64,000 nt of DNA. Origin: a virus (lineage: Duplodnaviria > Caudoviricetes). The notes under the pieces are model-generated. The model was not told the DNA's origin, ran no database searches, and saw only the letters and a list, made by a program, of their open reading frames with translations. Where the stretch lies: positions 1 to 64,000 of the IMG/VR virus record IMGVR_UViG_3300002179_000002. One strand, written 5' to 3'. Below, piece by piece: positions 30,635 through 64,000 of the stretch (position 1 is its first letter; each line of letters starts with the position of its first letter). A program made the position numbers and the translations under genes.

Positions 30635-30635
30635 G

Positions 30636-46524: not shown

Positions 46525-48209
46525 GCAAAGTAATAGATTTAGAGTCTAAGAATGTACCTCTCTCCAAACAACAAATTCTGAACGTTTATAAATACACTGG
46601 TGAGATCATTAACAACCTATCAGACAAGGCACTACAAGAACTGATGGATGGTTATAGTAATGATTTGGACAAGTTGTTGAATGAAATGACTATCCAAGTA
46701 AGCAGTGTAATTAACTATAATTCAGCTACTTTAGAGAGTGAAAAGCTTGATTATCTTGAGTATCTGGAGAAGGCCATAGATGAGAATTTGAAGATAATGA
46801 ACTTCTCATATTTCTGCACTACAGTGTTGACAAATTTCGTGATGCATACGCGTAACATCGAGTGGGCTAACTTAGTAGAGCTCTACCCCTGGTCAGCTTA
46901 TTTATGTCAACGAGGGAGTGGGAAGAGTTTTCAGTTCTGTTACGCACTACCACTGTTTAAACTTTACGGGTATAAGAGACCACACCCACTGATAGCAGAA
47001 ACAAAAGTTGAGCATTTAAGAAAAGAAACATGTATAATTACTAACACCTCTATTTTAGGTGGTTTACATGTGGCTAAGATTGTGGAGGAGATAAATCTAA
47101 ATGATATACTATCCTATAAGTTGAACCCAAATGGGAAAGCTAATCTAGGGAAGGAATCAATAACAACAGAAACAGGGTCAATATTACACAGACGGTCAAA
47201 AGATTCCGCGCTCCGTGGCTTACATGTGGGTACAGCAATAACGGATGACTTTCTTGATAAGTCAAGTTTATATTCAAGAGAACAGCGTGAGAAGGTATTA
47301 GAAGTTTTCAATGCCGAAATTTGTAATATTGTCGATCAAGGTGGATCAAATATTGTCAGTGGTACACCATTTCACCAACAGGACTTATATTCATCGTTAA
47401 GAGATGGTAAATTATTTAAAGTATTCTCTTACCCTGGTATCATGCCTAATATGGAGTTACTTGCACCAGATAGATTTTCTTTTGACTATTTAATGGATCT
47501 AAAGAAGTCTTTAGGTTCTATAGTATTTGCAAGAGAAATTCTTGTGTCTCCTATTTCAGACTCTTCAACACTCTTCCCCTATGAGTATTTAATGCGAAGT
47601 ACAATAGGAATGGAGAATATTAGATATGTAGAAAATATTGAGTCTTTTCCAATAAAAATGGAGAGAATAGCAGTAGGTTGTGATTTTGCAATATCAGGGG
47701 CAATAGGTGCTGACTCCTCAGTATTCTCAGTATTAGGCAGAGATAAGAATAAGAATATTTATCTTCTCTCCTACTGGCGGGCTAAAGGCGCATCACATAA
47801 TGAACAAGTGTCGCAGATTGTTTCTATTAATGATAGATTTAAACCTAATGTTATAGTAATGGAGTCAAATGGCTTCCAGAAGATTCTCGCGGACATGGTC
47901 AAACAAAGAGGTGTAAGAAATGTAAAGGAATTCACTACCACTTCAGGTGTAAAACGAGACTTGTATGTTGGTTTGCCAAGTATGTCAGCTGTTTTTGAAC
48001 GTGGAGAGATAAAGATTCCTTATAACCCAGATGAAGAGACACAGGAGAAGACACAGTTAATTTTCTCGGAATTTAATGGTGTTACGTTTAATGAGGATAG
48101 TGGTAAGTTGGAGAATTCTGTAGATCATGACGATTTGGTAATGTCCATTTTTATGGCTGCTACAGAGTTGAGAGAGAACAATAAAATGCTTGAAATGTTT
48201 ATGGTTTAA
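46521..48209 (+). CDS. terL: Terminase large subunit
   Basis: Walker A QRGSGKS, RG.H...ITDD, GTPFH, nuclease VGCDFA and HDDLVMS. Confidence 0.88.
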   Translation: MSKVIDLESKNVPLSKQQILNVYKYTGEIINNLSDKALQELMDGYSNDLDKLLNEMTIQVSSVINYNSATLESEKLDYLEYLEKAIDENLKIMNFSYFCTTVLTNFVMHTRNIEWANLVELYPWSAYLCQRGSGKSFQFCYALPLFKLYGYKRPHPLIAETKVEHLRKETCIITNTSILGGLHVAKIVEEINLNDILSYKLNPNGKANLGKESITTETGSILHRRSKDSALRGLHVGTAITDDFLDKSSLYSREQREKVLEVFNAEICNIVDQGGSNIVSGTPFHQQDLYSSLRDGKLFKVFSYPGIMPNMELLAPDRFSFDYLMDLKKSLGSIVFAREILVSPISDSSTLFPYEYLMRSTIGMENIRYVENIESFPIKMERIAVGCDFAISGAIGADSSVFSVLGRDKNKNIYLLSYWRAKGASHNEQVSQIVSINDRFKPNVIVMESNGFQKILADMVKQRGVRNVKEFTTTSGVKRDLYVGLPSMSAVFERGEIKIPYNPDEETQEKTQLIFSEFNGVTFNEDSGKLENSVDHDDLVMSIFMAATELRENNKMLEMFMV

Positions 48210-49663: not shown

Positions 49664-50695
49664 ATGGATTATCAGAAAATTTATGATCAAATAGTTATTA
49701 GAGCTAGATCTGAGAATAGAAAAAAGAAACAGGGAATTTACTACGAGAATCATCATATTTTGCCCAGAGGCTTAGGTGGTAGTGACATTGATGAAAATTT
49801 AGTTTTGCTTACTGCCAGGGAGCATTATATCTGTCATAGATTACTAGTTGAGATATATGTAGGAAATTCAACATTGGCTTATGCTTTGTGGATGATGGTT
49901 CATTCAAAGACAAAATTTCAACAACGAGATTATAAAATATCTTCGCGAGAATATGAGAGGCATCGAATTATGCATGCCGAGAATGTTTCTAAGAATCAAA
50001 GTGGAGAGAACTCGTCGTTTTATGGCGTTCATAGATATGGAGAGGATTCTTATAGATGGGGGATGACGCATACAGAAGAAACTAAATTAAAAATTAGTAT
50101 TACTAAGACAGGGGTAACAATGTCTGTGGAAGTGAGAGAAGCAATAAGTAAAGGGCATTCGGGCGAGAAAAGCATATGGTTCGACGTTCATAGATATGGA
50201 GAAGATAATCCAAATTTTGGACATTTGTGGACAGAGGAAATGAAACTTAGAGATAAAGAAATAATGCTGAATAAAGAAGATATTATTTGCCCCTACTGTG
50301 GCGTGTCTGGTCATCCCTCTATAATGAAAAGGTGGCATTTCGATAATTGCAAAATGAATCCCAATAGAGAGAAGAAATTATTATTTAAGTGTGATTGGTG
50401 CGATTATACTAGTGAAAACGAAGTTAACATACGTAGAAGGCATAATGATAAATGCAAAGAAAATCCAGATAGAATCATAACGATTTATGAGTGCGAATTC
50501 TGTGGGTTTACTTCAACTGAAAAAGGACACATTACTAATCATAAACGATTTTGTGAGTTAAATCCCGAAGGAAAAGCAAGACCCATAATAACTTGCGAAT
50601 ATTGTGGACTACAGAGTACTAATCAAGCTAATATGACACGCTTTCATGGAGACAAATGCCCCTCTCCAAACAACCCTTTAAATGAACAAGTCTAA
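49664..50695 (+). mobile_element. Free-standing HNH homing endonuclease with NUMOD3-like and four zinc-finger-like repeats
   Basis: HHILPRGLGG...NLVLLTAREHYICH; HTEETKLKIS; four CxxC...H...C units. Confidence 0.8.
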
Positions 50696-51656
50696 GATCA
50701 TATCTGAATTCTCCCTCACCACTTTCGGAAGTAAGGGGTTTCTTAAGGGTCAATTGTACTGTCCAGAATGCAGTCGTAATGATAAGTTTGGAATCCTATT
50801 CAAAGAGAACGGAGCTCTCTGTCACTGTTTCTACTGCTCGACATCATACTCCCTCAACAAGATACTGAGAGATATCGGCAGAACAGACCTGCTCGAGTAC
50901 GACTTCGATTACGAGCCGACATCTTCGTTGGCTCCCCTCAAGAAAGAAGAGGAGATAGCAGATGACAAAGACACAAAGCTGCCTATTGGCTTTATGAGGA
51001 TCAAGCAGGATGACTATCTCGATGCGAGAGGCTTCACGCCTGAGCAGTACGATCAGTTCCATGTAGGGGTCGCTGAGTTGGACCCAAAGACTGAGGATAA
51101 GATAGTATTCCAACTGTATCAGCACGACGTCCCTGCTGGATGGATGGCGAGGTCCAGGAAGTCCAAGGAGTGGCATCATGAGAATCTTAGGCGGCACAGA
51201 GAGCTTGGAGAGCCACTCGTGCTGAGATACAGGAACTCAAACAATGACTTCAGCAGGATGCTTGGCGGATTGGACGAGATAATGAAAGACACTCATACTC
51301 TGATCTTGGTCGAGGGCATCATGGACAAAGCCAACATAGATCGGTTGATGCATCTGAATGAGCAGCAGGAGATAAAGTGCTGCTTCACATTCGGCTCTGA
51401 CCTTAGCATCAACCAGATAGACCTCATTCCAGAGTCAGTAGATACGGTCATACTGATGTATGACGCTGGGACCATAAAGATGATGAAGCTGGCTGGAGGC
51501 AGGTTGATGTCAAGCTTTGATGTCCAAGTGGCGCTGATAGAGGGCAGAGATGCAGACCCTGGCAGCATATCTGAAAAAGAATTGTCGAAATTACTTTCTA
51601 ATCTGAAAAGTTTTATTTATTTTTATAGCTTCCTAGACAACTTCAAGACAATTTAG
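50682..51656 (+). CDS. DNA primase (zinc finger + TOPRIM)
   Basis: CPEC...HCFYC; LVEGIMD; LMYD; DADPG. Confidence 0.85.
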   Translation: MNKSKIISEFSLTTFGSKGFLKGQLYCPECSRNDKFGILFKENGALCHCFYCSTSYSLNKILRDIGRTDLLEYDFDYEPTSSLAPLKKEEEIADDKDTKLPIGFMRIKQDDYLDARGFTPEQYDQFHVGVAELDPKTEDKIVFQLYQHDVPAGWMARSRKSKEWHHENLRRHRELGEPLVLRYRNSNNDFSRMLGGLDEIMKDTHTLILVEGIMDKANIDRLMHLNEQQEIKCCFTFGSDLSINQIDLIPESVDTVILMYDAGTIKMMKLAGGRLMSSFDVQVALIEGRDADPGSISEKELSKLLSNLKSFIYFYSFLDNFKTI

Positions 51657-53168
51657 ATGGAAGATATTTTTAAATCGATTCAAGAGGGTATTAATTTACA
51701 GAGAGAGTGGATCGCGAAGTCGTTTACGATCAATATTGATATCGAAAAGGGAAAGAAGTCTCCTATTGGAGCTATTCACGTTAATAAACAAGGAACTTGG
51801 GTCAAAGTATCTGATACTGGTAATGGTCACAAGGATTGGGTTTTGGAGAAAAAAGTTAAGTCTGAATCTAAAATCGAAGAGAAGGAAGAGTGTTCAAAAT
51901 CAGAATTAAAATCAGAGAAAATTAAAATGAATGAGAGTTTCCCGAAAAATTTTAATATTGCTAGGGAGAATCTGACGACATCAGAAATGTTTCAAAAAAC
52001 ATCAAAAGGAAAATTTAAAGATCAAAATGAACTATATGATAAATTAGGAGGCAAAGAGAATTTAGAGAAAAAATTAAAAAGTTTTATTAATGACAGTGCC
52101 GTTTATATGGCTATTAAGAGTGGAACGCTTATTAGAGAGATTATTAATAAATCAGACGCATTTAAAAATAGTCTTGAAACGGGAAAAGGGTCTTTTAAAA
52201 CGATTGGAGAAGAGAGAACGCTGAAAGAGAAGTTTATTTTTGGCATAGATACAGAAGCTAATTCAAGCGAAGCAGATAATTTTCCAAAATACGGATTTAT
52301 TTCTTCAAAAGAAGAGATGAGTTATGAACCTATCTCCGAAGGAAATTATGGAAATGCATATGTAAAATTTAAGACATCTGCTGTCAAAGATAGAACTAGT
52401 ATTACTTTGGGAGATTCGTTCAATGATAATGGTTCTATCTCGTATAAAGGTCAAATAGATTTAACTTCTGTAGCGCCCCCTACTAAATTAAATGATGTAG
52501 ATGATAAACTCATTTGGGGCATTAATAATAATGATCCTAACTCAGATATGTGGAATAAAATAAATGAAGCTAAAAATATTGATGAATTTACAGAAGCATC
52601 TGTTTCTTCATATATGGAAGCTCAAATATATGGGAAGCTGTCTATAGATGATGTTGATAGCATTTTTGTAAGTTCTATAAAGGAAGCAGATTCTTTTAAC
52701 GCAGCGTTGAAAAAGGCAGGTAGAGAAATAAAAGTTTTGCCTTGTAAATTTGATAATAGATTAAACAATCTTGTGGGTGGTTATCATAGAGGGGATGGTC
52801 CTAGATATCGCGCTTCATTAAATCCAAGTGATATTGATAATCTTGGCGATTATTACATAGATATATTAGCTAATAAATGGCTTGCTGAGTCAGAAGTTGA
52901 AGTTAAGCATAATGCATTACCCTCTGGACTAGTTTTACTTGCTAAAAAATATAATCAGTTTACTAAAGATGAGCAAGGTCGTAAGGTAAGAATTCATTCA
53001 GATATAAGTATGGAAGACAAAAGAAATTGGCTTAAGAAATTCTACGAACTAATGTCTAATGGAGATGATGGAGGAATGCCTTTCTTTTGGCGTGAAGATT
53101 ATAGAAAAACAATAGGAGGATTCACTGATGATGTGATGAATAAGAAACTATTGATAAAATATAAATAA
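51657..53168 (+). CDS. Putative head cargo protein with DUF3626-like domain
   Basis: Leader MEDIFKSIQ...WIAKS...DIEKG; FKNSLETG, PKYG, YG...RTSITLGDS, YMEAQIYG. Confidence 0.65.
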   Translation: MEDIFKSIQEGINLQREWIAKSFTINIDIEKGKKSPIGAIHVNKQGTWVKVSDTGNGHKDWVLEKKVKSESKIEEKEECSKSELKSEKIKMNESFPKNFNIARENLTTSEMFQKTSKGKFKDQNELYDKLGGKENLEKKLKSFINDSAVYMAIKSGTLIREIINKSDAFKNSLETGKGSFKTIGEERTLKEKFIFGIDTEANSSEADNFPKYGFISSKEEMSYEPISEGNYGNAYVKFKTSAVKDRTSITLGDSFNDNGSISYKGQIDLTSVAPPTKLNDVDDKLIWGINNNDPNSDMWNKINEAKNIDEFTEASVSSYMEAQIYGKLSIDDVDSIFVSSIKEADSFNAALKKAGREIKVLPCKFDNRLNNLVGGYHRGDGPRYRASLNPSDIDNLGDYYIDILANKWLAESEVEVKHNALPSGLVLLAKKYNQFTKDEQGRKVRIHSDISMEDKRNWLKKFYELMSNGDDGGMPFFWREDYRKTIGGFTDDVMNKKLLIKYK

Positions 53169-53196
53169 AATGATTAGACGAACATAGATAAATAAA

Positions 53197-53697
53197 ATGG
53201 AACAACCAGTAACCAAGTCAAGGGATCTTTCGTTAATAGACTTCTATTCTGTACTTCAACAAGAATTCATCTCCTATTATGTACGTTCGAAGATCTACCC
53301 GAAACCTTTCTCAGAGAAGTATAAGAACTATTGTATCTGCAAGAGGGACAAGATTGAGAAGATAAGTGAGAAGAATAACTTGCCTTCTATCTTCAACAGC
53401 AACAGCACAAAAGAACGATGTATCAGAGAGTTTTTTGCTGAGTATGGCCTCCCTAATTTTGAGTATAGAGATGAGAAGTCAAAGTCTATAATGGGACGTT
53501 GGGACTCAATCTATTTCTTCCGAGAGGGAGTGAAAGTGAGGATCAAACTCGACAGTGAATATCTCGACCTGCCCGTCATTAAGAATATGTTCTCAGATAA
53601 TAGCGTCACAGTAAAAGTAAAGGGAGAATTGGAGCAGTTCAATTACTCCTATGTATCTAGAATACTGACTGACTCGTTGGTCGATTGGGACATCTAA
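53197..53697 (+). CDS. Hypothetical protein
   Basis: ORF track, 166 aa. Confidence 0.6.
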   Translation: MEQPVTKSRDLSLIDFYSVLQQEFISYYVRSKIYPKPFSEKYKNYCICKRDKIEKISEKNNLPSIFNSNSTKERCIREFFAEYGLPNFEYRDEKSKSIMGRWDSIYFFREGVKVRIKLDSEYLDLPVIKNMFSDNSVTVKVKGELEQFNYSYVSRILTDSLVDWDI

Positions 53698-53720
53698 TCA
53701 ATAACGATTATAAATTATGA

Positions 53721-53768
53721 GAAATATAAGATTTATATTTTTCGTATCAGTTTAATTATTAATTTTAT
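53721..53768 (+). promoter_or_regulatory. Operator-like palindrome (53721-53740) abutting promoter motif TTCGTAT-N11-TTAATTTTAT (53741-53768)
   Basis: Fourth promoter copy; second palindrome copy. Confidence 0.65.
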
Positions 53769-53790
53769 GGCAAATTAAAAAGAGAAGATC

Positions 53791-53967
53791 ATGAAACCAT
53801 TTGAAATTGATATTGAATTGGAAACTGTTACAATTAAACTTTTTGCCAAAAATAAAACTGAAGCCAAAAAGAAAGCTCTATTAAAGTTGAGTAAAATTAA
53901 TCCCACTAAACTTATTAGTAAAAGCTGGCCTGATAAAAAGAAAAACATTGATGTAAACGAAGTGTAA
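53791..53967 (+). CDS. Small basic protein (58 aa)
   Basis: Hand-translated MKPFEIDIELETVTIKLFAKNKTEAKKKAL...; directly downstream of the promoter. Confidence 0.55.
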   Translation: MKPFEIDIELETVTIKLFAKNKTEAKKKALLKLSKINPTKLISKSWPDKKKNIDVNEV

Positions 53968-54011
53968 TGAATTTTAATTAATAATTTTAACGCTACAAAA
54001 TATTCAACAAA

Positions 54012-55271
54012 ATGAGCATAGAAGACGACATCCGCAAAGCACAAGAACAACAGAAAGAGATACTAAAATCTTTTTATGGCAGTGAGGCCACTCCCGATCT
54101 TGTGAAGAGAGTAGAGACTGATATCGAGAAGGCTAAGAAATCTCCCATCGGGACGATCCACGTGAACTCAGCCGGGACATGGAAGAAGATGACAGACACT
54201 GGCGATGGCCATAAAGACTGGGTAAGAGTTAAGAAAGGTGACAAAGATCATCCTGAAACACCTAAGACTGAAGAAAAGAAAGAAGAACCTAAGAAAATTG
54301 ATTGGGCTGCTAGAACTGCTCCTGAAGAGAAACCTACATATGATTTTAAAGTTGGAGATAAGGTTAAATTAGGCGATGATATTAATCTAGTGTCTTTATC
54401 TGATTTAAAAGGAAAAACATTAGAAGTAGTTGGGGAAGAGAAAACAGATTTGATTAGTCAACCTACTTTTATTAAAGTTAAACTTCCTGATGGTGAAGTA
54501 AAGTCATTTAGTCCAGACTATCTGAAGAAGTTTGATGAGAAGGAAGAGAAAAGTAAAGAAGAGAAAGATGAATTTTATATGAAAAGGGAATTAATATCTT
54601 CTATAGATAATTCAGAACATGAAAAAGTTTCAGAACTTTCAGATAGAGATTTAAAATATCGTTTAGACACCCTTACTTCTATATCCAGACATACAATTCT
54701 TAATGCTTCAGCTTCAAAAATGTTGCGTTCATTAATTCAAGAAAAACAGTCTAGGTATGCTAAGTCTGAACCCAAGAAAGAAGAAGAATTCAAAGTTGAA
54801 GTTCCCAAGGAAGAAATTGTTTTATTAAATAAAATTAACGCATTAGATAAAGAATTTAAAGCAAAAAATATTAAGAGTGATTATGATTATTTTATGACAA
54901 GTGAAGGAGTGAAAGCTAAAGATAAAATTGATGAGTTGAGAGTTAAATATAATGATTTAAGAGTTAAAAGATTCATTGCATTATTAGCTGATAGTAAAGC
55001 TAAGCCTGAACCCAAGAAAGAAGAAGTAAAACCAGTAGAAGAGAAGAAGGAAGACAATTCACTTGAAGAAGCTAACAGGGAATTTAGAGATCGTAAGAAA
55101 TCTCTTTATAAAACATTTGCTGCAATGTCATCTAATCAATGCAGTATCAAGGCAGCTAAAGAAGTAGCAAAGAAATTCAAAATCAGATATCAAGACATTC
55201 TTAAAACCAAAACTCCTGATAATAATCTTGAAGGAGATAAAGGGTGGGATAAGAATGGAGATATTAAATAA
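54012..55271 (+). CDS. Putative head cargo protein, modular, with SH3/KOW-like domain
   Basis: Leader DIRK|A, EILK|S, DIEK|AKKSPIGTIHVN; FKVGDKVKL. Confidence 0.65.
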   Translation: MSIEDDIRKAQEQQKEILKSFYGSEATPDLVKRVETDIEKAKKSPIGTIHVNSAGTWKKMTDTGDGHKDWVRVKKGDKDHPETPKTEEKKEEPKKIDWAARTAPEEKPTYDFKVGDKVKLGDDINLVSLSDLKGKTLEVVGEEKTDLISQPTFIKVKLPDGEVKSFSPDYLKKFDEKEEKSKEEKDEFYMKRELISSIDNSEHEKVSELSDRDLKYRLDTLTSISRHTILNASASKMLRSLIQEKQSRYAKSEPKKEEEFKVEVPKEEIVLLNKINALDKEFKAKNIKSDYDYFMTSEGVKAKDKIDELRVKYNDLRVKRFIALLADSKAKPEPKKEEVKPVEEKKEDNSLEEANREFRDRKKSLYKTFAAMSSNQCSIKAAKEVAKKFKIRYQDILKTKTPDNNLEGDKGWDKNGDIK

Positions 55272-55365
55272 ATAATCAAACCCAATTTCGCAATATGCTC
55301 GTAAAATTCAAAGAACTTCGTGAAGGTTTTGTCTTACCTAAAAAGCATTTGATACTGAACGTCAC

Positions 55366-55392
55366 ATGAGCAGATACTCTTCTGCTCATTTC
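55366..55392. terminator. Perfect 9-bp hairpin, possible terminator
   Basis: ATGAGCAGA-TACTCT-TCTGCTCAT; the T tract is weak. Confidence 0.4.
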
Positions 55393-55499
55393 AACTATTA
55401 TCTATAATCTTTACAAATTTCACTTTTATTTTATATCATTTGTAAAATAGAAGTATAAATGTTATACTTTTACAGAGTCACAACTATAAGATATCAACC

Positions 55500-56336
55500 A
55501 TGAGAACTGACAGAGAATTGAGAAACATGACCACCATCCAGTTGGGGAAAGAAGCAACACTATTAGGAATAACAAAAACAGGAATAATGGATAAAGTTAA
55601 ATTAATCGAGAAGATCAAAGTAGCTCAGGCTGCAACGCCAGCATCTGATGAATACACTGATCGCAACAGCGATATCATCGCAGCAGATGACAGGGCAAAT
55701 TTCAGGGTAGGGGGCAAGTGGTTCCCTGGCACAATTACAAAATTCAAATCAATCGAGGACGACCAGTATGCGTATGCTCTGCTGGACGGAAGCGAAAAAG
55801 TAAAGATGTTCCACACTATGGACGTCGAATTGGACAAGAACGCAAAATCTAAAAGCAATATGAAGAAGAAAGAAGTTCCTCAGGAGCAAGTTGAGGAAGT
55901 AAAGAAAGAATCAAAGAAGGCAGTGCTCGCTGAGCTCCTTGAGCAGCCATCAGTTGAAGAACAGGAAGTAGAACAGGTAGAAGAGCAAGAAGTTGCCCCT
56001 ATTGAAGTAAAAACATCTACTCGTACCTCGCTGCCTCCAGCATCCATGAAGATCGCAAAAGCAGACGCTCCAGTCATCAAGACGAAAGAGGCTGATAAGA
56101 ACATTGCCAAAGACAAGAAAGCTCCTGCAGCATCGTCAGATGACATGCTTGCATGTATTTTCGCCAAGGGCGATGATGTGACATTCACATCTGCCAAGAA
56201 CTCCAAGCTGGCTTCTAATCAGGAGCTGAAGGGCAAAGTTGTATCTGTCAAGACTGATAAGGGCAAGTACTGGCTGTCCATCAAAGTAGAGGGCTTGGGA
56301 CACTTCATGAAAGAGGCATCTAAATGCCAGAAGTAA
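55500..56336 (+). CDS. Rho-N-like domain protein with SH3/Tudor-like domains and acidic linker
   Basis: MTTIQLGKEATLLGITKTGIMDKVKLIEKI resembles the Rho N-terminal helical motif. Confidence 0.45.
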   Translation: MRTDRELRNMTTIQLGKEATLLGITKTGIMDKVKLIEKIKVAQAATPASDEYTDRNSDIIAADDRANFRVGGKWFPGTITKFKSIEDDQYAYALLDGSEKVKMFHTMDVELDKNAKSKSNMKKKEVPQEQVEEVKKESKKAVLAELLEQPSVEEQEVEQVEEQEVAPIEVKTSTRTSLPPASMKIAKADAPVIKTKEADKNIAKDKKAPAASSDDMLACIFAKGDDVTFTSAKNSKLASNQELKGKVVSVKTDKGKYWLSIKVEGLGHFMKEASKCQK

Positions 56337-56641
56337 ATCAGATCACGGTGACTCCTGACTCATCCAAACTGGGCCAGGAGTTCCTAGATGCTCTCGATAG
56401 AGTGCTCATCACCAGAGCAGATAGAGCAGATCAGTATGGAGACACCTATCTCGGAGACGACTATATGTTCCTCTACTATCAGGTGCTCAACAAGATGAAG
56501 CGATTCAAGCTCCAGATGAGCATGGAGAGCGGACAAGAGCAGATAATCAACAGAGAGGTGGCTCTGGACTCAGCCATCGATTGCGCAAACTATGCAATAT
56601 TCATAATAGCAAAGATTCTGAAAGATGAGAGTGAGAGATAA
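56324..56641 (+). CDS. DUF1599/nucleotide-modification-associated all-alpha protein
   Basis: RADQYGD...KMKR...DSAIDCANYA. Confidence 0.6.
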   Translation: MPEVNQITVTPDSSKLGQEFLDALDRVLITRADRADQYGDTYLGDDYMFLYYQVLNKMKRFKLQMSMESGQEQIINREVALDSAIDCANYAIFIIAKILKDESER

Positions 56642-57866
56642 CTATATCCTCGGCGCAGGCATAAGCGGCCTAATATACGCTTACTACAACAGAGATTTCA
56701 CGATCATATCCCCAGATATCGGGGGCAAGCTCAACAACAAATTCTTCGAGAACATATTCTACCTACACGCCACTCCATTCACCGAGAGGCTGCTCGAGGA
56801 CCTCAAGCTCCCAATAGTAAAGAAGACGCAGCTCATAAAATATGTCAAGTCTGACAAGATATTGACAAAGCTCACGATAGAGGACAAGAAGAAGTTCATA
56901 TCGAAGAAGCTCAACGACCCTGAGTTCGACGCTAAAGACCTCTCGCTCAGCACCAGCGACAACTTCATCTCAGTCTTCGAAGTATCGTTCCAGGACATCC
57001 TATCCAGACTGAGAGAGGGAGTAGAGGTCATAAATGAGACGGTCATCAAGATAACTGAGACAGAGATCATCACTCACGACACTCGATACAAATATGACAA
57101 GCTGGTCTCGACTATCAGCGCCAGAGCATTCTGGGGCATGTACTACCAGCAGAGGACCGAGGAGCTGAAATCTGAGACGATAACCTTCCTATTGTGCGAT
57201 AAGCTACCTGATTGCCTCTCGAAAGAGAAGTTCGACCTCGCTTATTTTGTGGACGCAGATGTCAAGTACACCAGAATATCAAAGCGTAGGAGGGACCAGT
57301 CTGACGCATTCCTATATGAGTTCTCAGGGAGGCTATCTCAAGAGGACTGCGTAGAGCATCTCCCTACTGGAGCAGCAGTGTTGGACTTCTATCACGAGAT
57401 CGATGGACTCATATTCTCTGACAGCAATAACATACCTCCTAACAGAGTGGAGTTTGTGGGCAGGTTCGCCACTTGGGACCACTCATTCAAGCAGCAGGAT
57501 GTCATTGAGAAGGCTCTATCATCATTCGATATGTCCAACATCTGGAACATGCAGAAGAGATTCACTTCCAATTTCGTGGACTTCAACAGCCTGACCGAGA
57601 CTCATCAGAGGGAATCGCTCACGAAGGACTACTTCACAGCCATGATCATAGAGCTATCCGAAGTGATGAATGAGATTAACTACAAGCAGCACAAGCCGAA
57701 GAAGACGGTGGACATAGATCTATTATCCGAAGAGCTCATAGATGCGTTCAAGTACTTCGTCAACATCTGCCTGATGTGGGACATAACTCCCCAGAAGTTC
57801 ATTGAGTTATTCGAGATGAAATCAAAGAAAGTCACAGAGAGATATGAGAAACAAAAACAGCAGTAA
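56625..57866 (+). CDS. FAD-dependent oxidoreductase fused to an all-alpha dUTPase/dCTPase-like domain
   Basis: ILGAGISGL, GRFATW; C-terminal ELSEVMNEINYKQHK...EELIDAFKY. Confidence 0.75.
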   Translation: MRVRDNYILGAGISGLIYAYYNRDFTIISPDIGGKLNNKFFENIFYLHATPFTERLLEDLKLPIVKKTQLIKYVKSDKILTKLTIEDKKKFISKKLNDPEFDAKDLSLSTSDNFISVFEVSFQDILSRLREGVEVINETVIKITETEIITHDTRYKYDKLVSTISARAFWGMYYQQRTEELKSETITFLLCDKLPDCLSKEKFDLAYFVDADVKYTRISKRRRDQSDAFLYEFSGRLSQEDCVEHLPTGAAVLDFYHEIDGLIFSDSNNIPPNRVEFVGRFATWDHSFKQQDVIEKALSSFDMSNIWNMQKRFTSNFVDFNSLTETHQRESLTKDYFTAMIIELSEVMNEINYKQHKPKKTVDIDLLSEELIDAFKYFVNICLMWDITPQKFIELFEMKSKKVTERYEKQKQQ

Positions 57867-57868
57867 AA

Positions 57869-58753
57869 ATGAAAATAGAGAAGATAAAGAGAATGTTTGA
57901 GATTAAACAAGGAGAGATACCGAAGACTAAGTTCATCGACAACCTATCTGCAGTCCAAGTGGACATGATCGACTGGCCAGATCCAGAGAGATTGAAACGA
58001 GTATTCGTGAACATGAGCCAGGCATCTTGGTTTGAGAACTTCTACGACAATGCTACTCCAGAAGACAGGGACGAAGTGGTCAATGACCTATTCTCGGGAA
58101 AGATACTCGGCCAGGGCATGGAGCACCCTCAGTTCTGCTTCATAGTCAAGGGACTCTCCCTGCACGGAACGCACGCCCTAGTCAGGAACAGGATAGGCAT
58201 AGCATACATGCAGCAGTCACAGGCTGTGAAGGATTTTAGGCACTCAGATGTGCTTGTCCCGAGGGCATTCACCAAGCTACCCGACATGCTCAAACGATAC
58301 GAAGAATGGGTCCAACAGGGAAAGAGGCTGTACGCCGACATGCTCGACTCTGGAGAGATAGCAAACACTGACGCAAGGTTCTGCCTCCCTAAGACGATAC
58401 CTTCTTGGATATACGTAGCAGTCGCTCTGCCCACCCTACTGTCGATCTATGGCAAGCGTACCGACTCCCAAGAGGAGCACCCAGAGATGAATGCCATGGC
58501 TGAGCAGATGAGGAATCTGATAGTAGATAAATTCCCATACATGGCGTCCTATTTCGTGTCGCACGATGACAATGGCAAGTGCCTGCATCTTAGAAAGGGG
58601 TACGCCGCAAACTGCATCTTCAAACGAGATGAGGATCACGCTATCGAGGGATATACAGATGAGTGGACATTACACGATAAGACTAAGCAGGAGCTCATGC
58701 TCGACTGCGAGAAGTATAAGGGCTCATACTACATAGGAGGTGATAAGATATGA
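57869..58753 (+). CDS. Divergent ThyX-fold flavoprotein
   Basis: MEH, HALVRNR-x8-S, DARFCLP; lacks the canonical RHR and SxR. Confidence 0.7.
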   Translation: MKIEKIKRMFEIKQGEIPKTKFIDNLSAVQVDMIDWPDPERLKRVFVNMSQASWFENFYDNATPEDRDEVVNDLFSGKILGQGMEHPQFCFIVKGLSLHGTHALVRNRIGIAYMQQSQAVKDFRHSDVLVPRAFTKLPDMLKRYEEWVQQGKRLYADMLDSGEIANTDARFCLPKTIPSWIYVAVALPTLLSIYGKRTDSQEEHPEMNAMAEQMRNLIVDKFPYMASYFVSHDDNGKCLHLRKGYAANCIFKRDEDHAIEGYTDEWTLHDKTKQELMLDCEKYKGSYYIGGDKI

Positions 58754-59607
58754 TGATACAAGACATATACAGGCGCGAGCCATGGAAGATGCTCGTCTGC
58801 TGCATCCTGCTCAACCAGACTACTGGAGTGCAAGTCAAGAAGATGATGAGAGAGTTCTTCAGGACGTTTCCTACTCTCAATGACTTAAGGGACATAGATG
58901 AGAATACTCTGGCAGGAGAGATTGAGAGTTTGGGGATGCAGAATGTGAAGGCAAAGAGAATAAAAGCTTTCGTAGCATCTTTCACTGAAGATGTAGATGT
59001 TATGAAGGACTCAGTCATAGGGTATCCTGGACTAGGGAGCTATGCTTGCGAATCAGCAGATGTCTTCATATGCAGGAATAATGATGTCAAGCCAGAAGAC
59101 AAAGAGATCTCATCCTATCTCTCAAAGATTGAGACGGGAGATGTGTTCGTAGAGGGAATGAGAAAGTATCTAGAATTATGCGGAGTCGAGAGAGTCACTG
59201 TTGGTTGTAGAGTCAAAGAGATACTGAACCACTCGTATCATTTCTTCTCCAACGTATTCTGGCGCATCACAGATGATAGACTTCCCTATGTGAAGGATAA
59301 GTTGATCATGTATAGAACTGCTCTAAGAGACGCCATAAAGCGACTTGAGAGAGACAATACGAGTCGACAGGCGATCATTCAGTTCGATCAGAGCGATCCA
59401 TTGCCAAACTGCACAGTATCTATTCAGTTCCAGATCAAAGACGACATCCTATTCACCACAGTCTACCAGAGGTCTCAGGACATTGATAAAGTGGAGATGG
59501 ACTGCGAGATATTCGCTCTCATGTCTCTCGAAGTCATAAAAGCTATTGAGGGCGTTGATGATTATCGAGTTGCAGTATTTGTTGGAAACTTTCATCTATA
59601 TCTATAG
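58750..59607 (+). CDS. MBD4-like HhH DNA glycosylase fused to a minimal thymidylate-synthase-fold domain
   Basis: PWKMLVCCILLNQT, LGM, PGLGSY, VKPED; then SRQAII, PNC, QRSQD, GNFHLY. Confidence 0.78.
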   Translation: MMIQDIYRREPWKMLVCCILLNQTTGVQVKKMMREFFRTFPTLNDLRDIDENTLAGEIESLGMQNVKAKRIKAFVASFTEDVDVMKDSVIGYPGLGSYACESADVFICRNNDVKPEDKEISSYLSKIETGDVFVEGMRKYLELCGVERVTVGCRVKEILNHSYHFFSNVFWRITDDRLPYVKDKLIMYRTALRDAIKRLERDNTSRQAIIQFDQSDPLPNCTVSIQFQIKDDILFTTVYQRSQDIDKVEMDCEIFALMSLEVIKAIEGVDDYRVAVFVGNFHLYL

Positions 59608-59608
59608 G

Positions 59609-62600
59609 ATGGAGAAACTGATAAGACATCTAGAGGACAACAAGCTGGACTATGAGACTCTCGAGATCAAGAGCAAGTTCAAGATAGCAGATCAGACTTT
59701 CGAGTTCATCTGGCCAGACTCCACTGGCAGGCTATTCGATGATGACCTGCATCTACAAGCAGATGATACAGACTGCGACAATTATGCATTTAGATTCGGT
59801 GGGGACTACTACTACATAAACAAAGCAGACAAGGATAAACCGACATTCAAAGAGCTCAGATATATTGGCCAGTCGAAGAGAGAGATAGAGACTGATGCTT
59901 TTCTTGGAGTCAGAGGGGCGTATGAGATACTCAATGGCTCTAGAATCTATGAGGACTGGTGCGCTAAAGCAAAGTTCTTGGGAGTCAAATCTCTCGGCAT
60001 CATAGAGAAGAACACATTGGCTGGAGCTCTCAAGTTTCAGATTGAGTGCAAGAACCTCGATATCAAGCCGATACTTGGAGCGACTTACACTGTCGTCAGG
60101 AAGGGCGAAGATTACAAGCAGGATATCAAGTGCTTCGCAAAGTCAGAGACTGGCTGGACCAACCTACTGATGATCAACAAAGAGGTCAATGTCATCAACA
60201 ACAAGTTCATATACGAGGATAGGTTCATAGAGCTCTTGGAGGATGTGATAGTGATCGTAGATCCAAAGAGTGGATCATATGATAAATTGGGCAGGATGAG
60301 GAGCTACATGAAGTACTATCAGCTGGATACTGTCATATATAATGATCAGTCCAAAGATCAGGAGTATCTTCTGAATCTAAAGGCGTTTGTCAGAGATGGC
60401 AGCCTGAAGCCGATATTCATATGCGATGCATTCTACCTAGATAGGGATCACAGCCACATAAAGAAGACGCTGAATGGGATATCTGGAGTCAGGGAGTATG
60501 AGTCATCCAACCAGTATTTCAAAGACGCCGATGACTATCTGGCAGAGTTAGAGCTGTTATTCTCTACAGAGGATGAGTCGTTCTACGATATAGCATCAAA
60601 AGCCATCAAGAATGCCAACACACTGTCTGAGATCTGCAACTTCCAGATCGATACAGAGCACTTCTATCTGCCTGACTATGTACTAACAGAGGAGCAGTTA
60701 ACGAAGTATAAGGATAAGATAGACCTATTCTGGGGCCTCATAGGCGAGGGGATGGATGAGAAATGCTCGGACGAGGACAGAGAGAAATATCTGGACAGGA
60801 TTGAGATAGAGTATTCAGTCATCATGAAGGGCCAGAATCTGATTGATTACTTCCTCATCCTATGGGATATCATAGACTGGTGCGGCAAACAGAACATATT
60901 AGTCGGATATGGCCGAGGATCATCTGCTGGAAGTCTCATCGCATACCTATTGGGGATAACCAACATCGATCCATTCGAGTACGACCTCCTGTTCGAGAGG
61001 TTCTTGAATGAGAATAGGGTCAAGAAATCAATCCCTGACATTGACTCAGACTTTGAGGGACTGAGAAGGGATGAGGTAAAGCACTATATGGAGCAGAGAT
61101 TCGGATACGATCAGGTGTGCTCTGTAGGGACATACGGCAACCTGAAACTGAAGATGATATTCACAGACCTTGCAAAACGTAGCAACATTCCTATTCAGGA
61201 GGTCAAGATGATGACAAGCATACTCGGAGAGGGAGAGAAGGACGGCACCGATTGGTCTGAGATATTCCATCTTGCATCTAAGTCTCAGAAACTGAAGGAC
61301 TTTGTGATGCGCAATCCAGACATAGTTCACGACGCTAAATTGTGTCTGATGCAGCCTAGATCTGGATCAGTCCATGCATGCGCCACCATCATCACTCCAG
61401 CAGACAAGGACATCTATCACTGGTTCCCAGTCAAGAAGGTCCTATCTAAAGATGGAGAGGAGCTGCTCGTCAGCGAGTGGGAGGGCATTCAGCTGGACAA
61501 AGCAGGATTCTTAAAAGAAGATATATTAGGTATTCAACAATTGGATAAGTTCGCCAGCTGCATAAAGCTCATAGAGGAGAACAAGGGGATAAAGATCGAC
61601 TTCAAGAAGATACCATTAGATGACGATGCTGTATATAGGTACTTTGGAAAGGGGTGGAACTCTGATGTGTTCCAGTTCGGGACTCAGGGACTGAAGAAAT
61701 ATACTAAAGAATTGAAGCCTGATTCGATGGAAGAGCTCAGCGCAACCAATGCATTATATCGTCCTGGCGCCATGAAATCTAATGCTCACAATGACTTTGT
61801 GATGATTAAATGGGGTATGAAAGAGCCTGAATACGACTATATGCTTGAAAGTGTGACTAAAAAGACTTACGGTCTATATATCTACCAAGAACAGACAATG
61901 AGGGCTGCTCAGGTACTTGGCGGATTCACTTTAGTTGAGGCAGACATGATGAGAAAAGTGATGCTTGGCAGGGGAAAGAAACAGTTTAGAGATCAGTTCT
62001 ATATCTATCATGATAAATTTGTTTTGGGAGCTGTAGCAAATGGATGCGAAGCAAGTGTTGCAGAAAAGATCTGGGATAAGCTAGAAGCGTTTGCGGGTTA
62101 CGGGTTTAATGCCAGCCATGCGGCTGCCTATGCGATAACTGGGTATATTAGTCAGTGGTTTAAGGTCAATCACCCAATCGAATTCTGGACTACAGCATTC
62201 AAGTTTGCTAAAGATGAATTGGTAGCTGATTTCATATCTGAGATCCATGCCACTGGAGCCATAAAGATATCTCCACCAGACATAAATGAGTCGCTGTTCG
62301 ATATGACTTCGAACTTCAAGAAGAACACCATCTACTGGGCGCTCACGAGCATCAAGTCAGTCGGTGGAGTTGCTGCTGAGCAGATCATGAAAGATAGGGA
62401 TGAGAATGGACCATATTTCAGCTTCGAGGAGTTCCTGAGCAGGCACACTTTCAAGGGCAGCAAGGTCAACAAGACTCATGTAGAGAATCTCATATTCTCA
62501 GGTGCATTCGACAAGGTCGAGGAGATAGAGGACTCTCTCAAGCGCAAGCGACTGATAGACTTCTACCGGACTGAGAAGAAGACTAAGATAGATGCCGAGA

Positions 62601-63049
62601 AGGATCTCATGACGCTGAGCGAGAAGGACATCTCCGATGACTGGTGGTGGGACCTCAGGCAGAAGAGGCTGACTGGCATAGCATTCTTCGACTACAAGAC
62701 TATGTGCGACAAGTATCTGACAGATGGAAAGTATCTCGATCAGGATGAGTGGCAGTCAGAGTCGCTAAGTAACATCTACTACTCGATAGGCGGCTACATA
62801 GTAGAGGTGATTGAGCGGACATCCAAGAAGAGTGGCAAATACTGCTCGATCAGGATTGAGAGCAACTACACATTCATCTGGGTGTCTATATTTCCCTGCC
62901 AGTATCAGCAGCTCACAAAATCTGGCATCGAGCTGATAGGACAGGAGGGCAACATCCTACTGCTCACAGGGATGATCAAACTCGACACCTACAAGAAAGA
63001 GAACGCATGCAAGTTCTGGGACAACAGCGAATTAGTAATCTTAAAATAA
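59609..63049 (+). CDS. dnaE: DNA polymerase III alpha subunit (family C)
   Basis: GRGSSAGSL, LLFERFLN, PDIDSDF, KEDILG, VFQF, ALYRPG, YQEQ, YGFNASHA; start re-called at ATG 59609. Confidence 0.95.
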   Translation: MEKLIRHLEDNKLDYETLEIKSKFKIADQTFEFIWPDSTGRLFDDDLHLQADDTDCDNYAFRFGGDYYYINKADKDKPTFKELRYIGQSKREIETDAFLGVRGAYEILNGSRIYEDWCAKAKFLGVKSLGIIEKNTLAGALKFQIECKNLDIKPILGATYTVVRKGEDYKQDIKCFAKSETGWTNLLMINKEVNVINNKFIYEDRFIELLEDVIVIVDPKSGSYDKLGRMRSYMKYYQLDTVIYNDQSKDQEYLLNLKAFVRDGSLKPIFICDAFYLDRDHSHIKKTLNGISGVREYESSNQYFKDADDYLAELELLFSTEDESFYDIASKAIKNANTLSEICNFQIDTEHFYLPDYVLTEEQLTKYKDKIDLFWGLIGEGMDEKCSDEDREKYLDRIEIEYSVIMKGQNLIDYFLILWDIIDWCGKQNILVGYGRGSSAGSLIAYLLGITNIDPFEYDLLFERFLNENRVKKSIPDIDSDFEGLRRDEVKHYMEQRFGYDQVCSVGTYGNLKLKMIFTDLAKRSNIPIQEVKMMTSILGEGEKDGTDWSEIFHLASKSQKLKDFVMRNPDIVHDAKLCLMQPRSGSVHACATIITPADKDIYHWFPVKKVLSKDGEELLVSEWEGIQLDKAGFLKEDILGIQQLDKFASCIKLIEENKGIKIDFKKIPLDDDAVYRYFGKGWNSDVFQFGTQGLKKYTKELKPDSMEELSATNALYRPGAMKSNAHNDFVMIKWGMKEPEYDYMLESVTKKTYGLYIYQEQTMRAAQVLGGFTLVEADMMRKVMLGRGKKQFRDQFYIYHDKFVLGAVANGCEASVAEKIWDKLEAFAGYGFNASHAAAYAITGYISQWFKVNHPIEFWTTAFKFAKDELVADFISEIHATGAIKISPPDINESLFDMTSNFKKNTIYWALTSIKSVGGVAAEQIMKDRDENGPYFSFEEFLSRHTFKGSKVNKTHVENLIFSGAFDKVEEIEDSLKRKRLIDFYRTEKKTKIDAEKDLMTLSEKDISDDWWWDLRQKRLTGIAFFDYKTMCDKYLTDGKYLDQDEWQSESLSNIYYSIGGYIVEVIERTSKKSGKYCSIRIESNYTFIWVSIFPCQYQQLTKSGIELIGQEGNILLLTGMIKLDTYKKENACKFWDNSELVILK

Positions 63050-63053
63050 ATAT

Positions 63054-63377
63054 ATGACAAATCAAGAATTTCTAACCTATCACCAAGAGTGTTTAGATAA
63101 ACTCAAATCTATCGTGGCGTCCAAGAATCACGACTATGCTGGCTTCAGCAAGGACGACTGTTTCGCCAATTTCAAGCTGGTCGAGAATATCGGTATAGCG
63201 TCCGCAGAACAGGGCTTCCTGACTCGGATGATGGATAAGGTGTCTCGAGTCAATTCGTTCGTCCAGCAGGGCGTGCTTAACGTAGCAGACGAGAAGATCG
63301 AGGACACATTGTTGGACCTCGCAAACTACTCGATATTGATGGCTGGCTATATCAAATCAAAGAAAGAGGGAATATGA
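63054..63377 (+). CDS. DUF1599/nucleotide-modification-associated protein
   Basis: KNHDYAG...NF...RMMDKVSR...EDTLLDLANY. Confidence 0.75.
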   Translation: MTNQEFLTYHQECLDKLKSIVASKNHDYAGFSKDDCFANFKLVENIGIASAEQGFLTRMMDKVSRVNSFVQQGVLNVADEKIEDTLLDLANYSILMAGYIKSKKEGI

Positions 63378-63703
63378 AGATCTATCTAGCAATACCCTAT
63401 AGTGGCTTCGAAGAGGAGAGCTTCTCAGTAGCCAATAAGATCGCAGCAGAACTCATGCTAGAGGGTCACATCGTCTTCTCTCCCATCTCGCACACTCATC
63501 CCATTGCTTTATCGGGAGATCTTCCCAAAGGATGGCAGTACTGGAAGACTTTCGATGAATCATTTATCGAGTGGTGCGACCAATTGGCCGTAGTCATAAT
63601 GAAGAATCAGGGCGAGGAGAGAGTTAGAAATAGTCAAGGAATTGCTGGAGAATTGACTCTAGCAGATGTTTATAATAAACCAATCTACTACATAAAAGAA
63701 TGA
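63374..63703 (+). CDS. DUF1937 / nucleoside 2-deoxyribosyltransferase-like protein
   Basis: IYLAIPYS, VFSPISHTH, WCD, S.G...E. Confidence 0.7.
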   Translation: MKIYLAIPYSGFEEESFSVANKIAAELMLEGHIVFSPISHTHPIALSGDLPKGWQYWKTFDESFIEWCDQLAVVIMKNQGEERVRNSQGIAGELTLADVYNKPIYYIKE

Positions 63704-64000
63704 GACTAATAAAACCATATTTCGAGATCATCACTCCTATTAATGGAGAACAGATTCTGAATCAAATTGAACTAGCAGCAAGAACCTGTTATAAGTCAGA
63801 AGATAGAATAGCTCCTGGTTCTGCTGAAAAACTTATCAAGAATGTTTTAATGGCTAGAGGACATAATGCCATGCTTGAATTCGGTGGAATGATTACAGTC
63901 AAATTTGTCTGCGACAGAGGCGTATCACATGAATTAGTTCGGCATAGATTAGCTTCTTTTGCTCAAGAAAGCACAAGATTCTGCAATTATACAGATGATA
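63700..64000 (+). CDS. thyX: FAD-dependent thymidylate synthase, 3' truncated by the window edge
   Basis: Hand-translated: ARTCYKS, GH.AMLE, SHELVRHRLASFAQESTRFCNY (canonical RHRx7S). Confidence 0.9.
   Translation, partial: MRLIKPYFEIITPINGEQILNQIELAARTCYKSEDRIAPGSAEKLIKNVLMARGHNAMLEFGGMITVKFVCDRGVSHELVRHRLASFAQESTRFCNYTDD

Follow-up and report, generated by a model that had tools for sequence, protein, structure and literature searches.

Base substitutions in phage DNA defeat restriction and CRISPR systems and have supplied enzymes for biotechnology. The pathway of phage T4 runs through a dCTPase/dUTPase (gp56), a dCMP hydroxymethylase (gp42), a dNMP kinase (gp1) and the polymerase of the phage itself, and to our knowledge all characterised pyrimidine pathways start from a full-length homologue of the thymidylate synthase (TS) ThyA. 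We analysed a block of eight genes that starts at position 56324 of a 64,000-nucleotide stretch of viral DNA (hereafter the window), positions 1 to 64,000 of the IMG/VR record IMGVR_UViG_3300002179_000002, and that runs slightly past its end. Judged from protein families, structural models and analogy with known phages, the block would encode a nucleotide-pool pathway to a C5-modified deoxypyrimidine, probably derived from cytosine (dCMP), for the phage's own DnaE polymerase; we give this reading a probability of about 0.55.

Two published accounts, each drawn on throughout from a partial text, describe related systems. According to PMC13326640, phage TS homologues with Asp at ThyA position 177 act on dCMP, some of them with flavin and O2 rather than folate, and dCTPases, Tmk-like kinases and a UDP-galactopyranose mutase (UGM) belong to such clusters. 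In thymidine hypermodification, the enzymes that tailor the C5 substituents include flavin oxidoreductases and radical SAM proteins (PMC8989533). In the present locus, a predicted non-canonical ThyX and a predicted minimal ThyA fold (mini-TS) stand between a flavoprotein-pyrophosphatase fusion and DnaE.

Gene content of the block

The source record is linear, 75,860 bp long and 69% complete (CheckV), and the window is its first 64,000 bp. Eight genes, all on the + strand, occupy 56324 to contig position 64416; neighbours overlap by 4-17 nt or are separated by 1-4 nt, and together they form one translationally coupled, GC-rich block. The eight genes called in the original prediction are all present, on that strand and at the same positions, and Pfam and PHROG bear out the list, with no significant family for P0001:

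56324-56641, + strand: P0001, 105 aa, first gene of the module; helical, DUF1599-like below threshold
56625-57866, + strand: P0002, 413 aa, predicted flavoprotein fused to an all-alpha NTP pyrophosphatase (Pfam dUTPase_2 and predicted structure)
57869-58753, + strand: P0003, 294 aa, predicted non-canonical ThyX fold (Pfam Thy1)
58750-59607, + strand: P0004, 285 aa, predicted MBD4-type glycosylase fused to the mini-TS (Pfam HhH-GPD and Thymidylat_synt; model)
59609-63049, + strand: DnaE-type polymerase (Pol III alpha, PHP domain); four Pfam domains, phrog_405 at E 8e-202
63054-63377, + strand: DUF1599 (Nmad1) protein, 107 aa; PF07659 at 25.9 bits against a cut-off of 25, phrog_1485 at E 2.7e-15
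63374-63703, + strand: DUF1937 protein, 109 aa, nucleoside 2-deoxyribosyltransferase (NDT)-like fold; PF09152 at 46.8 bits, phrog_355
63700-64416 of the contig (416 nt past the window; L001:7700-8416), + strand: canonical ThyX, 238 aa; Thy1 at 128.6 bits, full open reading frame (ORF)

The reading frames of P0001 and P0002 overlap by 17 nt, those of P0003 and P0004 by 4 nt, and 4-nt overlaps also occur at each junction of the last three genes; the end of P0002 (57866) and the start of P0003 (57869) are separated by a 2-nt gap. The start of DnaE is most likely the ATG at 59609, not the TTG at 59546, to judge from the sequence around it: the ATG sits one base past the TAG at 59605-59607 and has AGGA upstream. 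A frameshift or fusion joining the mini-TS to DnaE was ruled out, since the TS frame stops at that TAG, directly before the ATG with its upstream AGGA.

Non-canonical ThyX

P0003 matched Pfam Thy1 at 81.5 bits (gathering cut-off 24.8), and its family profile matched solved ThyX structures at E 9e-22; as a single sequence it matched no PDB chain. The canonical motif RHR-x7-S-x-R-Y, visible in the aligned PDB chains, is absent, P0003 reading RNR...SQAV (R106-N-R108 ... S117-Q-A-V) in place of RHR...SQRY, and wider family members reading ...C/S-T-G-D. Among 27 P0003-family sequences R106, R108, R170 and R197 were invariant. R170 and R197 aligned to the two substrate-binding or activating Arg (R147 and R174 in T. 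maritima) of the M. tuberculosis and Corynebacterium ThyX chains. Extensions of ~40 N-terminal and ~70 C-terminal residues carry conserved Cys/His. Labelled only 'ThyX' in the Protein Atlas, P0003 was the best conserved member of the module (57-80% identity across loci), and its sequence suggests a ThyX-fold flavoenzyme of non-canonical type.

Flavoprotein fused to a pyrophosphatase

Residues 303-404 of P0002 matched dUTPase_2 at 27.4 bits (cut-off 22.9), a family matched by 22 of its 26 family members, and the best PDB matches of the P0002-family profile were the MazG-like 2q73 and 4qgp. The acidic motifs ExxE...ExxD (E343, E346, E370, D373) were at least 90% conserved and aligned to the MazG-like chains. 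By these sequence comparisons the C-terminal domain is an all-alpha NTP pyrophosphatase of the dimeric-dUTPase/MazG type, and it is probably active.

For the remainder of P0002, a model built on the 26-sequence alignment (pLDDT 89.9) was compared with known structures. Residues 1-~300 matched UGM (4dsg) with Z 22.5 and rmsd 3.5 over 307 aligned residues, followed by PPO (Z 20.3) and by MAO and LAAO (~17.6), the matches ranging from 22.5 to 17.5, while Foldseek ranked renalase first. The model thus predicts a compact two-domain FAD-type flavoprotein of the amine-oxidase/PPO/UGM fold, in line with the FAD oxidoreductase first proposed for this half. No Pfam family matched it over threshold, NAD_binding_8 appearing weakly in 5 of the 26 family members only, and the single sequence gave nothing meaningful against the PDB (LOV-domain matches, E 0.025). 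The UGM match ranked first in Z, but PPO reached 20.3, the P0002 domain has only ~300 residues, and the 20 Pfam families matched by the 26 members (E ≤ 10) included no UGM family. In the Protein Atlas the flavoprotein fell among viral 'hypothetical protein' clusters and bacterial clusters named PPO or UGM, with many stand-alone viral relatives of 250-314 aa. P0002 itself had 26 relatives, all but two shorter ones of full fusion length.

MBD4-type glycosylase fused to a minimal TS fold

Pfam placed HhH-GPD at residues 16-109 of P0004 (41.1 bits) and Thymidylat_synt at residues 192-284 (24.8 bits, cut-off 24.3), and the protein was modelled with pLDDT 92.4 and pTM 0.89. A profile of residues 1-~127 matched MBD4 in the PDB at E 2.7e-17 (over profile positions 3-125), and the modelled domain superposed on MBD4 with Z 17.6 and rmsd 2.4 over 128 residues. 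Asp117 aligned to the catalytic Asp of MBD4, which is replaced by Asn in the inactive forms that were crystallised. The Gln and Tyr through which MBD4 contacts a flipped-out base also have aligned counterparts in P0004. The N-terminal domain is predicted to be an MBD4-type HhH-GPD mismatch glycosylase.

All 157 residues of the second domain (residues 128-285) superposed on TS-fold enzymes, the top match being the flavin-dependent dCMP hydroxylase AfhB of phage HY126 (9iqu; Z 16.1, rmsd 2.2, 157 aligned). In 22 family sequences the mini-TS had 27 invariant columns, and the invariant residues of the family were R206, C221, Q240-R-S-Q-D244, D251, C252, N280 and H282. HMMER aligned C221 to the ThyA nucleophile Cys, with Arg206/Arg241/Ser242 as the phosphate clamp, and the family-invariant Asp251 to ThyA Asn177, which reads uracil, with a one-residue gap. 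The positions of ThyA 143 and 169 are taken by Leu218, hydrophobic in most of the 22 sequences, and by the invariant Asp244. This is not a full-length ThyA: the match spans no more than positions 112-211 of the 266 in the profile, H282-L-Y-L closes the domain directly before the DnaE start, and the folate-binding segments of ThyA are missing. As modelled, it is a complete but minimal ThyA fold with the catalytic Cys kept.

In the available text of PMC13326640, Asp at ThyA position 177 belongs to dCMP-specific enzymes, and all tested 5-hydroxy-dCMP (5hodCMP) synthases carry Asn at 169 (D169N); an acidic residue (Glu or Asp) at 143 is a further mark of the type. Of these features of the AfhB/RB69 gp48 type, the mini-TS has N177D but neither D169N nor an acidic residue at 143. 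Asp244 at 169 therefore argues against a 5-hydroxy-dCMP synthase, and by the residue rules of that paper Leu218 would be a methyl-type, water-excluding residue.

P0004 had 21 relatives in a 5.8-billion-protein set, all metagenomic. Fusions made up 18 of the 22 aligned sequences, P0004 included, and the other four were stand-alone mini-TS proteins of ~160 aa. Proteins identical to P0002 and P0004 are encoded on a recorded contig of 114,111 bp.

Conservation of the module

A neighbourhood search, proposed together with the original prediction, showed that the four genes keep their order (P0001, P0002, P0003, then the mini-TS with or without the MBD4-type domain) in six further loci, all distinct and of viral or metagenomic origin: L002, L004/L009 (two records of one virus), L005, L008, L010 and L003, the left end of which is cut off. 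The module had been described as wrapped around DnaE. DnaE does adjoin it, but the conserved unit is four genes: DnaE lies downstream here and directly upstream in L004/L009 and L008, and others have PolB instead. Equally, the remark that the block holds three TS folds although one suffices applies here and to L005, where a canonical ThyX also stands beside the divergent one, but not family-wide, G001, G002 and G005 having one full-size gene.

Homologues of P0001 are the first module gene in L002, L004/L009, L005, L008 and L010. P0001 had originally been called DUF1599-like, and this is the weakest item of that annotation: a distant likeness is present, but the score against DUF1599 (PF07659, 'nucleotide modification associated domain 1') was 13.2 bits and did not reach the cut-off of 25. 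Matches below threshold occurred in 3 of 6 P0001 family members, and hhalign compared P0001 with the window's own DUF1599 protein (63054-63377) at a probability of 27% (E 7e-4). We regard P0001 as a small helical, sub-threshold and distant DUF1599-like candidate.

Insertions into the module are locus-specific. L002, L003 and L005 contain an NAD-dependent epimerase/dehydratase SDR gene, L004/L009 has one for a radical SAM/SPASM enzyme and L005 also one for an RNase T-type exonuclease, and a DUF1937 gene follows the module in L003 as it does here. The mini-TS stands alone in L005, L008 and L013-L015. Directly 5' of the stand-alone mini-TS of L005, a 187-aa ORF (9349-9912) weakly matched the mini-TS hidden Markov model (HMM; E 1.7e-5), possibly as a tandem paralogue. 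In L010, the module is followed after 650 bp by a gene for an N6/N4 DNA methyltransferase (5415-6326).

Wider relatives were sampled in two ways. A HMMER scan of 1.84 billion representatives with P0003 gave 650 matches with E ≤ 1e-3, of which 109 reached 1e-10 and 11 reached 1e-30, and a pattern scan using a sister-clade alignment gave 80 IMG/VR loci with ThyX relatives, which were searched with local HMMs built from our own alignments. The pyrophosphatase was found in 38 of the 80, the flavoprotein in 21, a P0001-like ORF in 5 and the MBD4 domain in none. When the ThyX homologues were sorted by the motif after R-x-R with a simple regular expression (L019 and L022, both with pyrophosphatase/flavoprotein genes, were left unclassed), a pyrophosphatase or flavoprotein gene adjoined 11 of 13 '...C[ST]GD/GTGD'-type genes and 17 of 23 'GGRD/GGRN'-type genes, the upstream DNA being missing at a contig end in 5 of the 6 others, versus 10 of the 42 remaining loci, which are mostly canonical-like (RHR...SQR). 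From this split, the association is specific to the non-canonical ThyX clades. The second of these clades (L026-L044, L056-L065) has a ThyX of ~346 aa whose motif ends in GGRD, always preceded by a dUTPase_2-containing protein of 320 aa and a flavoprotein-like ORF of 276 aa.

Sister modules carry further genes. L013 and L015 have, in order, the pyrophosphatase, a thymidylate-kinase-like kinase, the flavoprotein, an extended SDR, the ThyX-like gene, the mini-TS and PolB. L014 is arranged likewise, but its kinase was identified by BLAST only, and a 260-aa ORF without detected SDR similarity takes the place of the SDR. A flavoprotein-pyrophosphatase fusion, ThyX-like gene and kinase make up L011, to which L012 adds a radical SAM gene and a 1152-aa ORF taken for DnaE by size only. 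The kinase is thus inside the module by Pfam in L011, L012, L013 and L015 and by BLAST in L014. The radical SAM proteins of L004 and L012 are homologous to each other, as are the SDRs of L002, L003, L005, L013 and L015. In L015, a gene for a Fic/DOC-domain protein (4038-4562) lies directly upstream of the Tmk-like kinase.

Cultured relatives

Geobacillus phage GR1 (OK896991.1) encoded the only full-length relative of P0003 among cultured phages (50,697 GenBank phage records; at least 80% cover). Its locus at 27.1-34.8 kb holds a P-loop kinase, RNase HI, a nitroreductase-type flavin oxidoreductase, a ThyX-like protein (hhalign probability 100, E 1e-50), a 151-aa protein that is weakly mini-TS-like (E 1e-3), DnaE (PHP) and an all-alpha dUTPase, and the kinase resembles that of L011 (E 2.6e-9). 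A glycosyltransferase, an HD protein and an NDT are encoded upstream (GR1 21770-36546, L007), the whole gene set lying inside 13 kb. No paper on GR1 was found in the literature searched.

In the same phage records P0004 had six partial matches and P0002 one, a DNA search found no place covering more than 3% of the block, and the 'GGRD'-type ThyX-like protein had no match at E 1e-10; for the type-A ThyX-like protein, GR1 was the only full-length match among 28 records. One scan of genome contigs with P0003 found no prophage or cellular copy.

Proposed pathway

The pathway would begin with the MazG/dimeric-dUTPase-type domain of P0002, which would hydrolyse a canonical dNTP (dCTP and/or dUTP) to the dNMP, removing the triphosphate and feeding the modifier. 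The non-canonical ThyX and the mini-TS would then carry out the C5 chemistry. In the mini-TS the Cys221 thiolate would attack C6, with Arg206/Arg241/Ser242 clamping the phosphate and Asp251 at the base-specificity position, and the amine-oxidase-fold flavoprotein of P0002 would act as redox partner or tailoring oxidase. Since the mini-TS is without folate-binding segments, the electrophile would probably be flavin-borne. In a third step the MBD4-type domain would remove T or U opposite G, the products of deamination or misincorporation. Finally a kinase, of which none was found on the incomplete contig and a Tmk-like one occurs in sister modules, would phosphorylate the product to the triphosphate.

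We favour this pathway because the recurring pyrophosphatase, pyrimidine-C5 enzymes, Tmk-like kinase and dedicated polymerase follow the known logic of phage base substitution. That logic, already invoked when the pyrophosphatase, TS-fold modifier and polymerase were first noticed together, is strengthened by the four-gene module in six other loci and by the kinase, SDR and radical SAM genes of its sisters.

The single best guess for the product is 5-methyl-dC, which would agree with Asp at ThyA position 177, Leu at 143, the Asp kept at 169 and the fused T:G glycosylase; 5-hydroxy- and 5-hydroxymethyl-dC rank next. Assignment to cytosine would follow from Asp251, from the coexisting canonical ThyX here and in L005 and from the T:G/U:G glycosylase fused to the mini-TS, an activity of use to the phage should the modified cytosine deaminate to a T-like base. 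The earlier 'probably cytosine' thereby gains a residue-level argument, Asp251 at the position of Asn177 (PMC13326640, partial text), but one placed by a weak alignment. Because the ThyX-like core keeps the uracil-activating arginines, and because the mini-TS is present only in a subset, the first substrate could equally be dUMP.

Alternative explanations

The observations that weigh against a modified base are best considered beside an alternative in which the block supplies ordinary dTMP and excludes uracil. It would comprise a dUTPase, a two-component ThyX reduced by the flavoprotein, glycosylases that purge uracil, a mini-TS that is a relic, regulatory, or dUMP- or dCMP-binding, and canonical DNA. 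The gene calls and the logic of the original prediction hold up, but every conserved part of the module also fits this alternative. The sequence is known from four peat-metagenome runs as assembled contigs only, and the modification is a prediction from the genes. The best Pfam family of the pyrophosphatase is dUTPase_2, and P0003 keeps both substrate arginines of flavin-dependent thymidylate synthase (FDTS). L010 has a dCMP deaminase between P0002 and P0003 and a uracil-DNA glycosylase (UDG)-family gene inside or next to the module, and a UDG-like gene occurs in 14 of the 80 wider loci; dUTPase, ThyX, dCMP deaminase, UDG and MBD4 would form a coherent kit to make dTMP and keep uracil out. In three fairly complete relatives (G001, G002 and G005), Thy1 and Thymidylat_synt matched nothing but the divergent ThyX and the mini-TS, so the divergent ThyX, as the only full-size TS-type gene, could simply be their thymidylate synthase. 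The mini-TS is found in 3 of the 80 loci and is missing from most carriers of the ThyX-like gene. Asp251 falls at Asn177 only if one residue is gapped in a weak alignment (E about 1e-3), the mini-TS lacks the D169N that is diagnostic of 5hodCMP synthases, and the AfhB match is tied within 1 Z by S. aureus and L. casei ThyA (15.6) and MilA (15.4). Among the families tested, no match to a dNMP kinase, Glycos_transf_1, Glycos_transf_2, SDR or radical SAM was found on the whole 75.9-kb contig (69% complete), which extends the earlier observation of no visible kinase or glycosyltransferase beyond the window. The closest relatives likewise showed no glycosyltransferase or kinase, G001 (88% complete) and G002 having no Glycos_transf_1, Glycos_transf_2 or Thymidylate_kin match. 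The nitroreductase-type NAD(P)H:flavin oxidoreductase that replaces the flavoprotein in GR1 fits a plain flavin-reductase role. Set against this, the same block also holds a canonical ThyX, both here and in L005. The divergent ThyX no longer has the His of RHR or the Arg-Tyr of the substrate loop Ser-x-Arg-Tyr, and it has acquired extensions with conserved Cys/His. The mini-TS is strongly constrained, with a nucleophile Cys and Asp, not Asn, at the specificity position, and the extended SDRs, radical SAM enzymes and Tmk-like kinases of sister modules would have no role in plain dTMP synthesis. On balance we consider ordinary dTMP supply, the strongest of the alternatives, rather unlikely.

The mini-TS might instead be a flavin-dependent 5-hydroxy-dCMP synthase in a pathway to glycosylated 5-hydroxycytosine of the RB69/RL38JI kind, with the UGM-like flavoprotein and, in relatives, a GalE-like SDR making a furanose NDP-sugar for later transfer to the DNA. 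AfhB and UGM are the best structural matches of the mini-TS (Z 16.1) and the flavoprotein (Z 22.5), epimerase/dehydratase genes lie in the module of L002, L003, L005, L013 and L015, and in RL38JI a 5hodCMP synthase is accompanied by a phage UGM (PMC13326640, partial text). This is nevertheless improbable, given that Asp244 is kept where all tested synthases have Asn, that position 143 is Leu and not Glu/Asp, that ordinary ThyA comes within 1 Z of AfhB, and that PPO matches nearly as well as UGM, no UGM Pfam family being found in the 26 members. Moreover, Glycos_transf_1 and Glycos_transf_2 matched nothing in the contig, G001 or G002, and no SDR was found on the contig. Very improbable, in our view, is modification after replication, by which the MBD4-type domain would flip a pyrimidine out of the duplex so that the fused mini-TS could act on its C5 within the polymer. 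Of 22 members, 18 are fusions of the two domains, which were modelled as one rigid body (pTM 0.89), and HhH-glycosylase-fold enzymes that modify C5 substituents on DNA exist (aGPT-Pplases; PMC8989533, partial text). However, 4 of the 22 members are stand-alone mini-TS proteins, as are those of L005, L008 and L013-L015, the mini-TS keeps the clamp for a mononucleotide phosphate (R206, R241, S242), and the catalytic Asp117 is kept, which makes a real glycosylase more likely.

Beyond this one locus, it is possible, and we propose it tentatively, that a widespread and unrecognised viral system makes new pyrimidines from a core of non-canonical ThyX, compact flavoprotein and all-alpha pyrophosphatase, to which clades add the mini-TS, the MBD4 glycosylase, SDRs, radical SAM enzymes and Tmk-like kinases. 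The enzymes of such a system would perform one-carbon or oxygen chemistry, borne by flavin, with dCMP or dUMP as substrate, which is undescribed for ThyX-fold enzymes. If a modified base is made, a new enzyme family for C5 chemistry would be in hand, and many 'thymidylate synthase' annotations in uncultured viruses would be explained (109 clusters at 50% identity, E ≤ 1e-10, a count that includes ordinary ThyX relatives). If the block encodes a two-component thymidylate synthase instead, it would still be a new, if less striking, variant of FDTS biochemistry. Phage GR1 provides a cultured entry point that makes the question directly testable.

Genome context and composition

The block lies in a GC island of 8.7 kb (~55700 to ~64400; 0.41-0.49 versus 0.28-0.40 on either side), the GC content rising at about 55700 and dropping past the canonical ThyX. 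The island coincides exactly with the module plus DnaE, DUF1599, DUF1937 and ThyX, which suggests acquisition as a single unit or a distinct codon regime. An assembly chimera at the GC step was ruled out, because contigs from two runs cross the left edge of the block, spanning 50000-60189 and 50000-64000 with even depth; these runs (Logan contigs, peat metagenomes) are possibly the source samples.

One further ORF reaches into the island:

55500-56336, + strand: 278-aa Lys/Glu-rich ORF; no Pfam or PHROG family, 3' third within the GC island

Residues 192-277 of this ORF are 39% identical (E 8e-5) to the ORF directly 5' of the module in L002, and its membership of the module is uncertain.

The 5' neighbours of the block are exonuclease, terminase, DnaB-like helicase and primase genes. 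The terminase large-subunit-like gene (46521-48209, Terminase_6C) stands amid the replication genes, with the exonuclease 5' and the helicase 3' of it, far from the structural genes. Between the helicase and the primase, a 343-aa ORF with NUMOD3-motif and zinc-ribbon-like matches (49664-50695) may be a homing-endonuclease-type insertion. On the 3' side lie a Metallophos/SbcD-like gene, RecA, a small MazG-like dATP/dGTP pyrophosphohydrolase, an SbcC-like gene and a resolvase. The MazG-like protein (104 aa; contig 69179-69493, L001 13179-13493; best Pfam family PF04447), encoded between RecA and the SbcC-like gene, is a candidate for a second, purine-directed house-cleaning enzyme in the same genome.

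Comparison with known systems

The kind of system proposed here is known. The enzyme set, a non-canonical ThyX core with a flavoprotein-pyrophosphatase fusion and an MBD4-mini-TS fusion, was not found described in the literature searched, part of which was available as partial text, and no ThyX-like modification enzyme or gene set of this kind appeared among the papers listed, those on ThyX being judged by title and the opening of the abstract.

At the level of single proteins, P0003 is like canonical ThyX (PDB 3ge9, 2af6, 1o26) in its fold, in the RxR of the motif and in having the two substrate arginines. It differs in the lost His of RHR and Arg-Tyr of S-x-R-Y, in its extensions and in its linkage to a pyrophosphatase and a flavoprotein. 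P0004 resembles MBD4 (PDB 3iho, 4ew4) in fold, catalytic Asp and base-reading Gln and Tyr, but it lacks the methyl-CpG-binding domain, carries Gln in place of Arg in the LNRTSG segment and continues into a TS fold. The 5-hydroxy-dCMP synthases (HY126 AfhB, 9iqu/9iqc; RB69 gp48; DLP3 gp80) are alike in having a shortened ThyA fold with Asp177, and they use flavin instead of folate, as the mini-TS probably would. Here, by contrast, the mini-TS is ~60-80 residues shorter and has no D169N or L143E/D (Asp244, Leu218), and no arabinose or glycosyltransferase genes were found.

Among gene clusters, that of GR1 is unlike the present one in its nitroreductase-type flavoprotein and in having no MBD4 domain. 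The thymidine hypermodification clusters of M6, PaMx11 and ViI similarly combine flavin oxidoreductases, radical SAM proteins and other tailoring enzymes in varying sets around a C5-modified pyrimidine. Those clusters, as far as the partial text of PMC8989533 describes them, act on 5-hydroxymethyldeoxyuridine (5-hmdU) in DNA by way of 5-HMUDK and aGPT-Pplase, whereas the present set looks nucleotide-level; neither enzyme was among the Pfam matches of the ORFs scanned, in which no search was aimed at them. Compared with the T4-type pathway, the ThyA fold here has 157 residues, is without folate segments and is fused to a glycosylase, two predicted flavoproteins, of ThyX and amine-oxidase fold, belong to the core, and no kinase was found on the contig. 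The likeness to T4 lies in a pyrophosphatase that would convert dNTP to dNMP, a ThyA fold with Cys and Asp and a phage polymerase in the same block, together with a kinase in sister loci.

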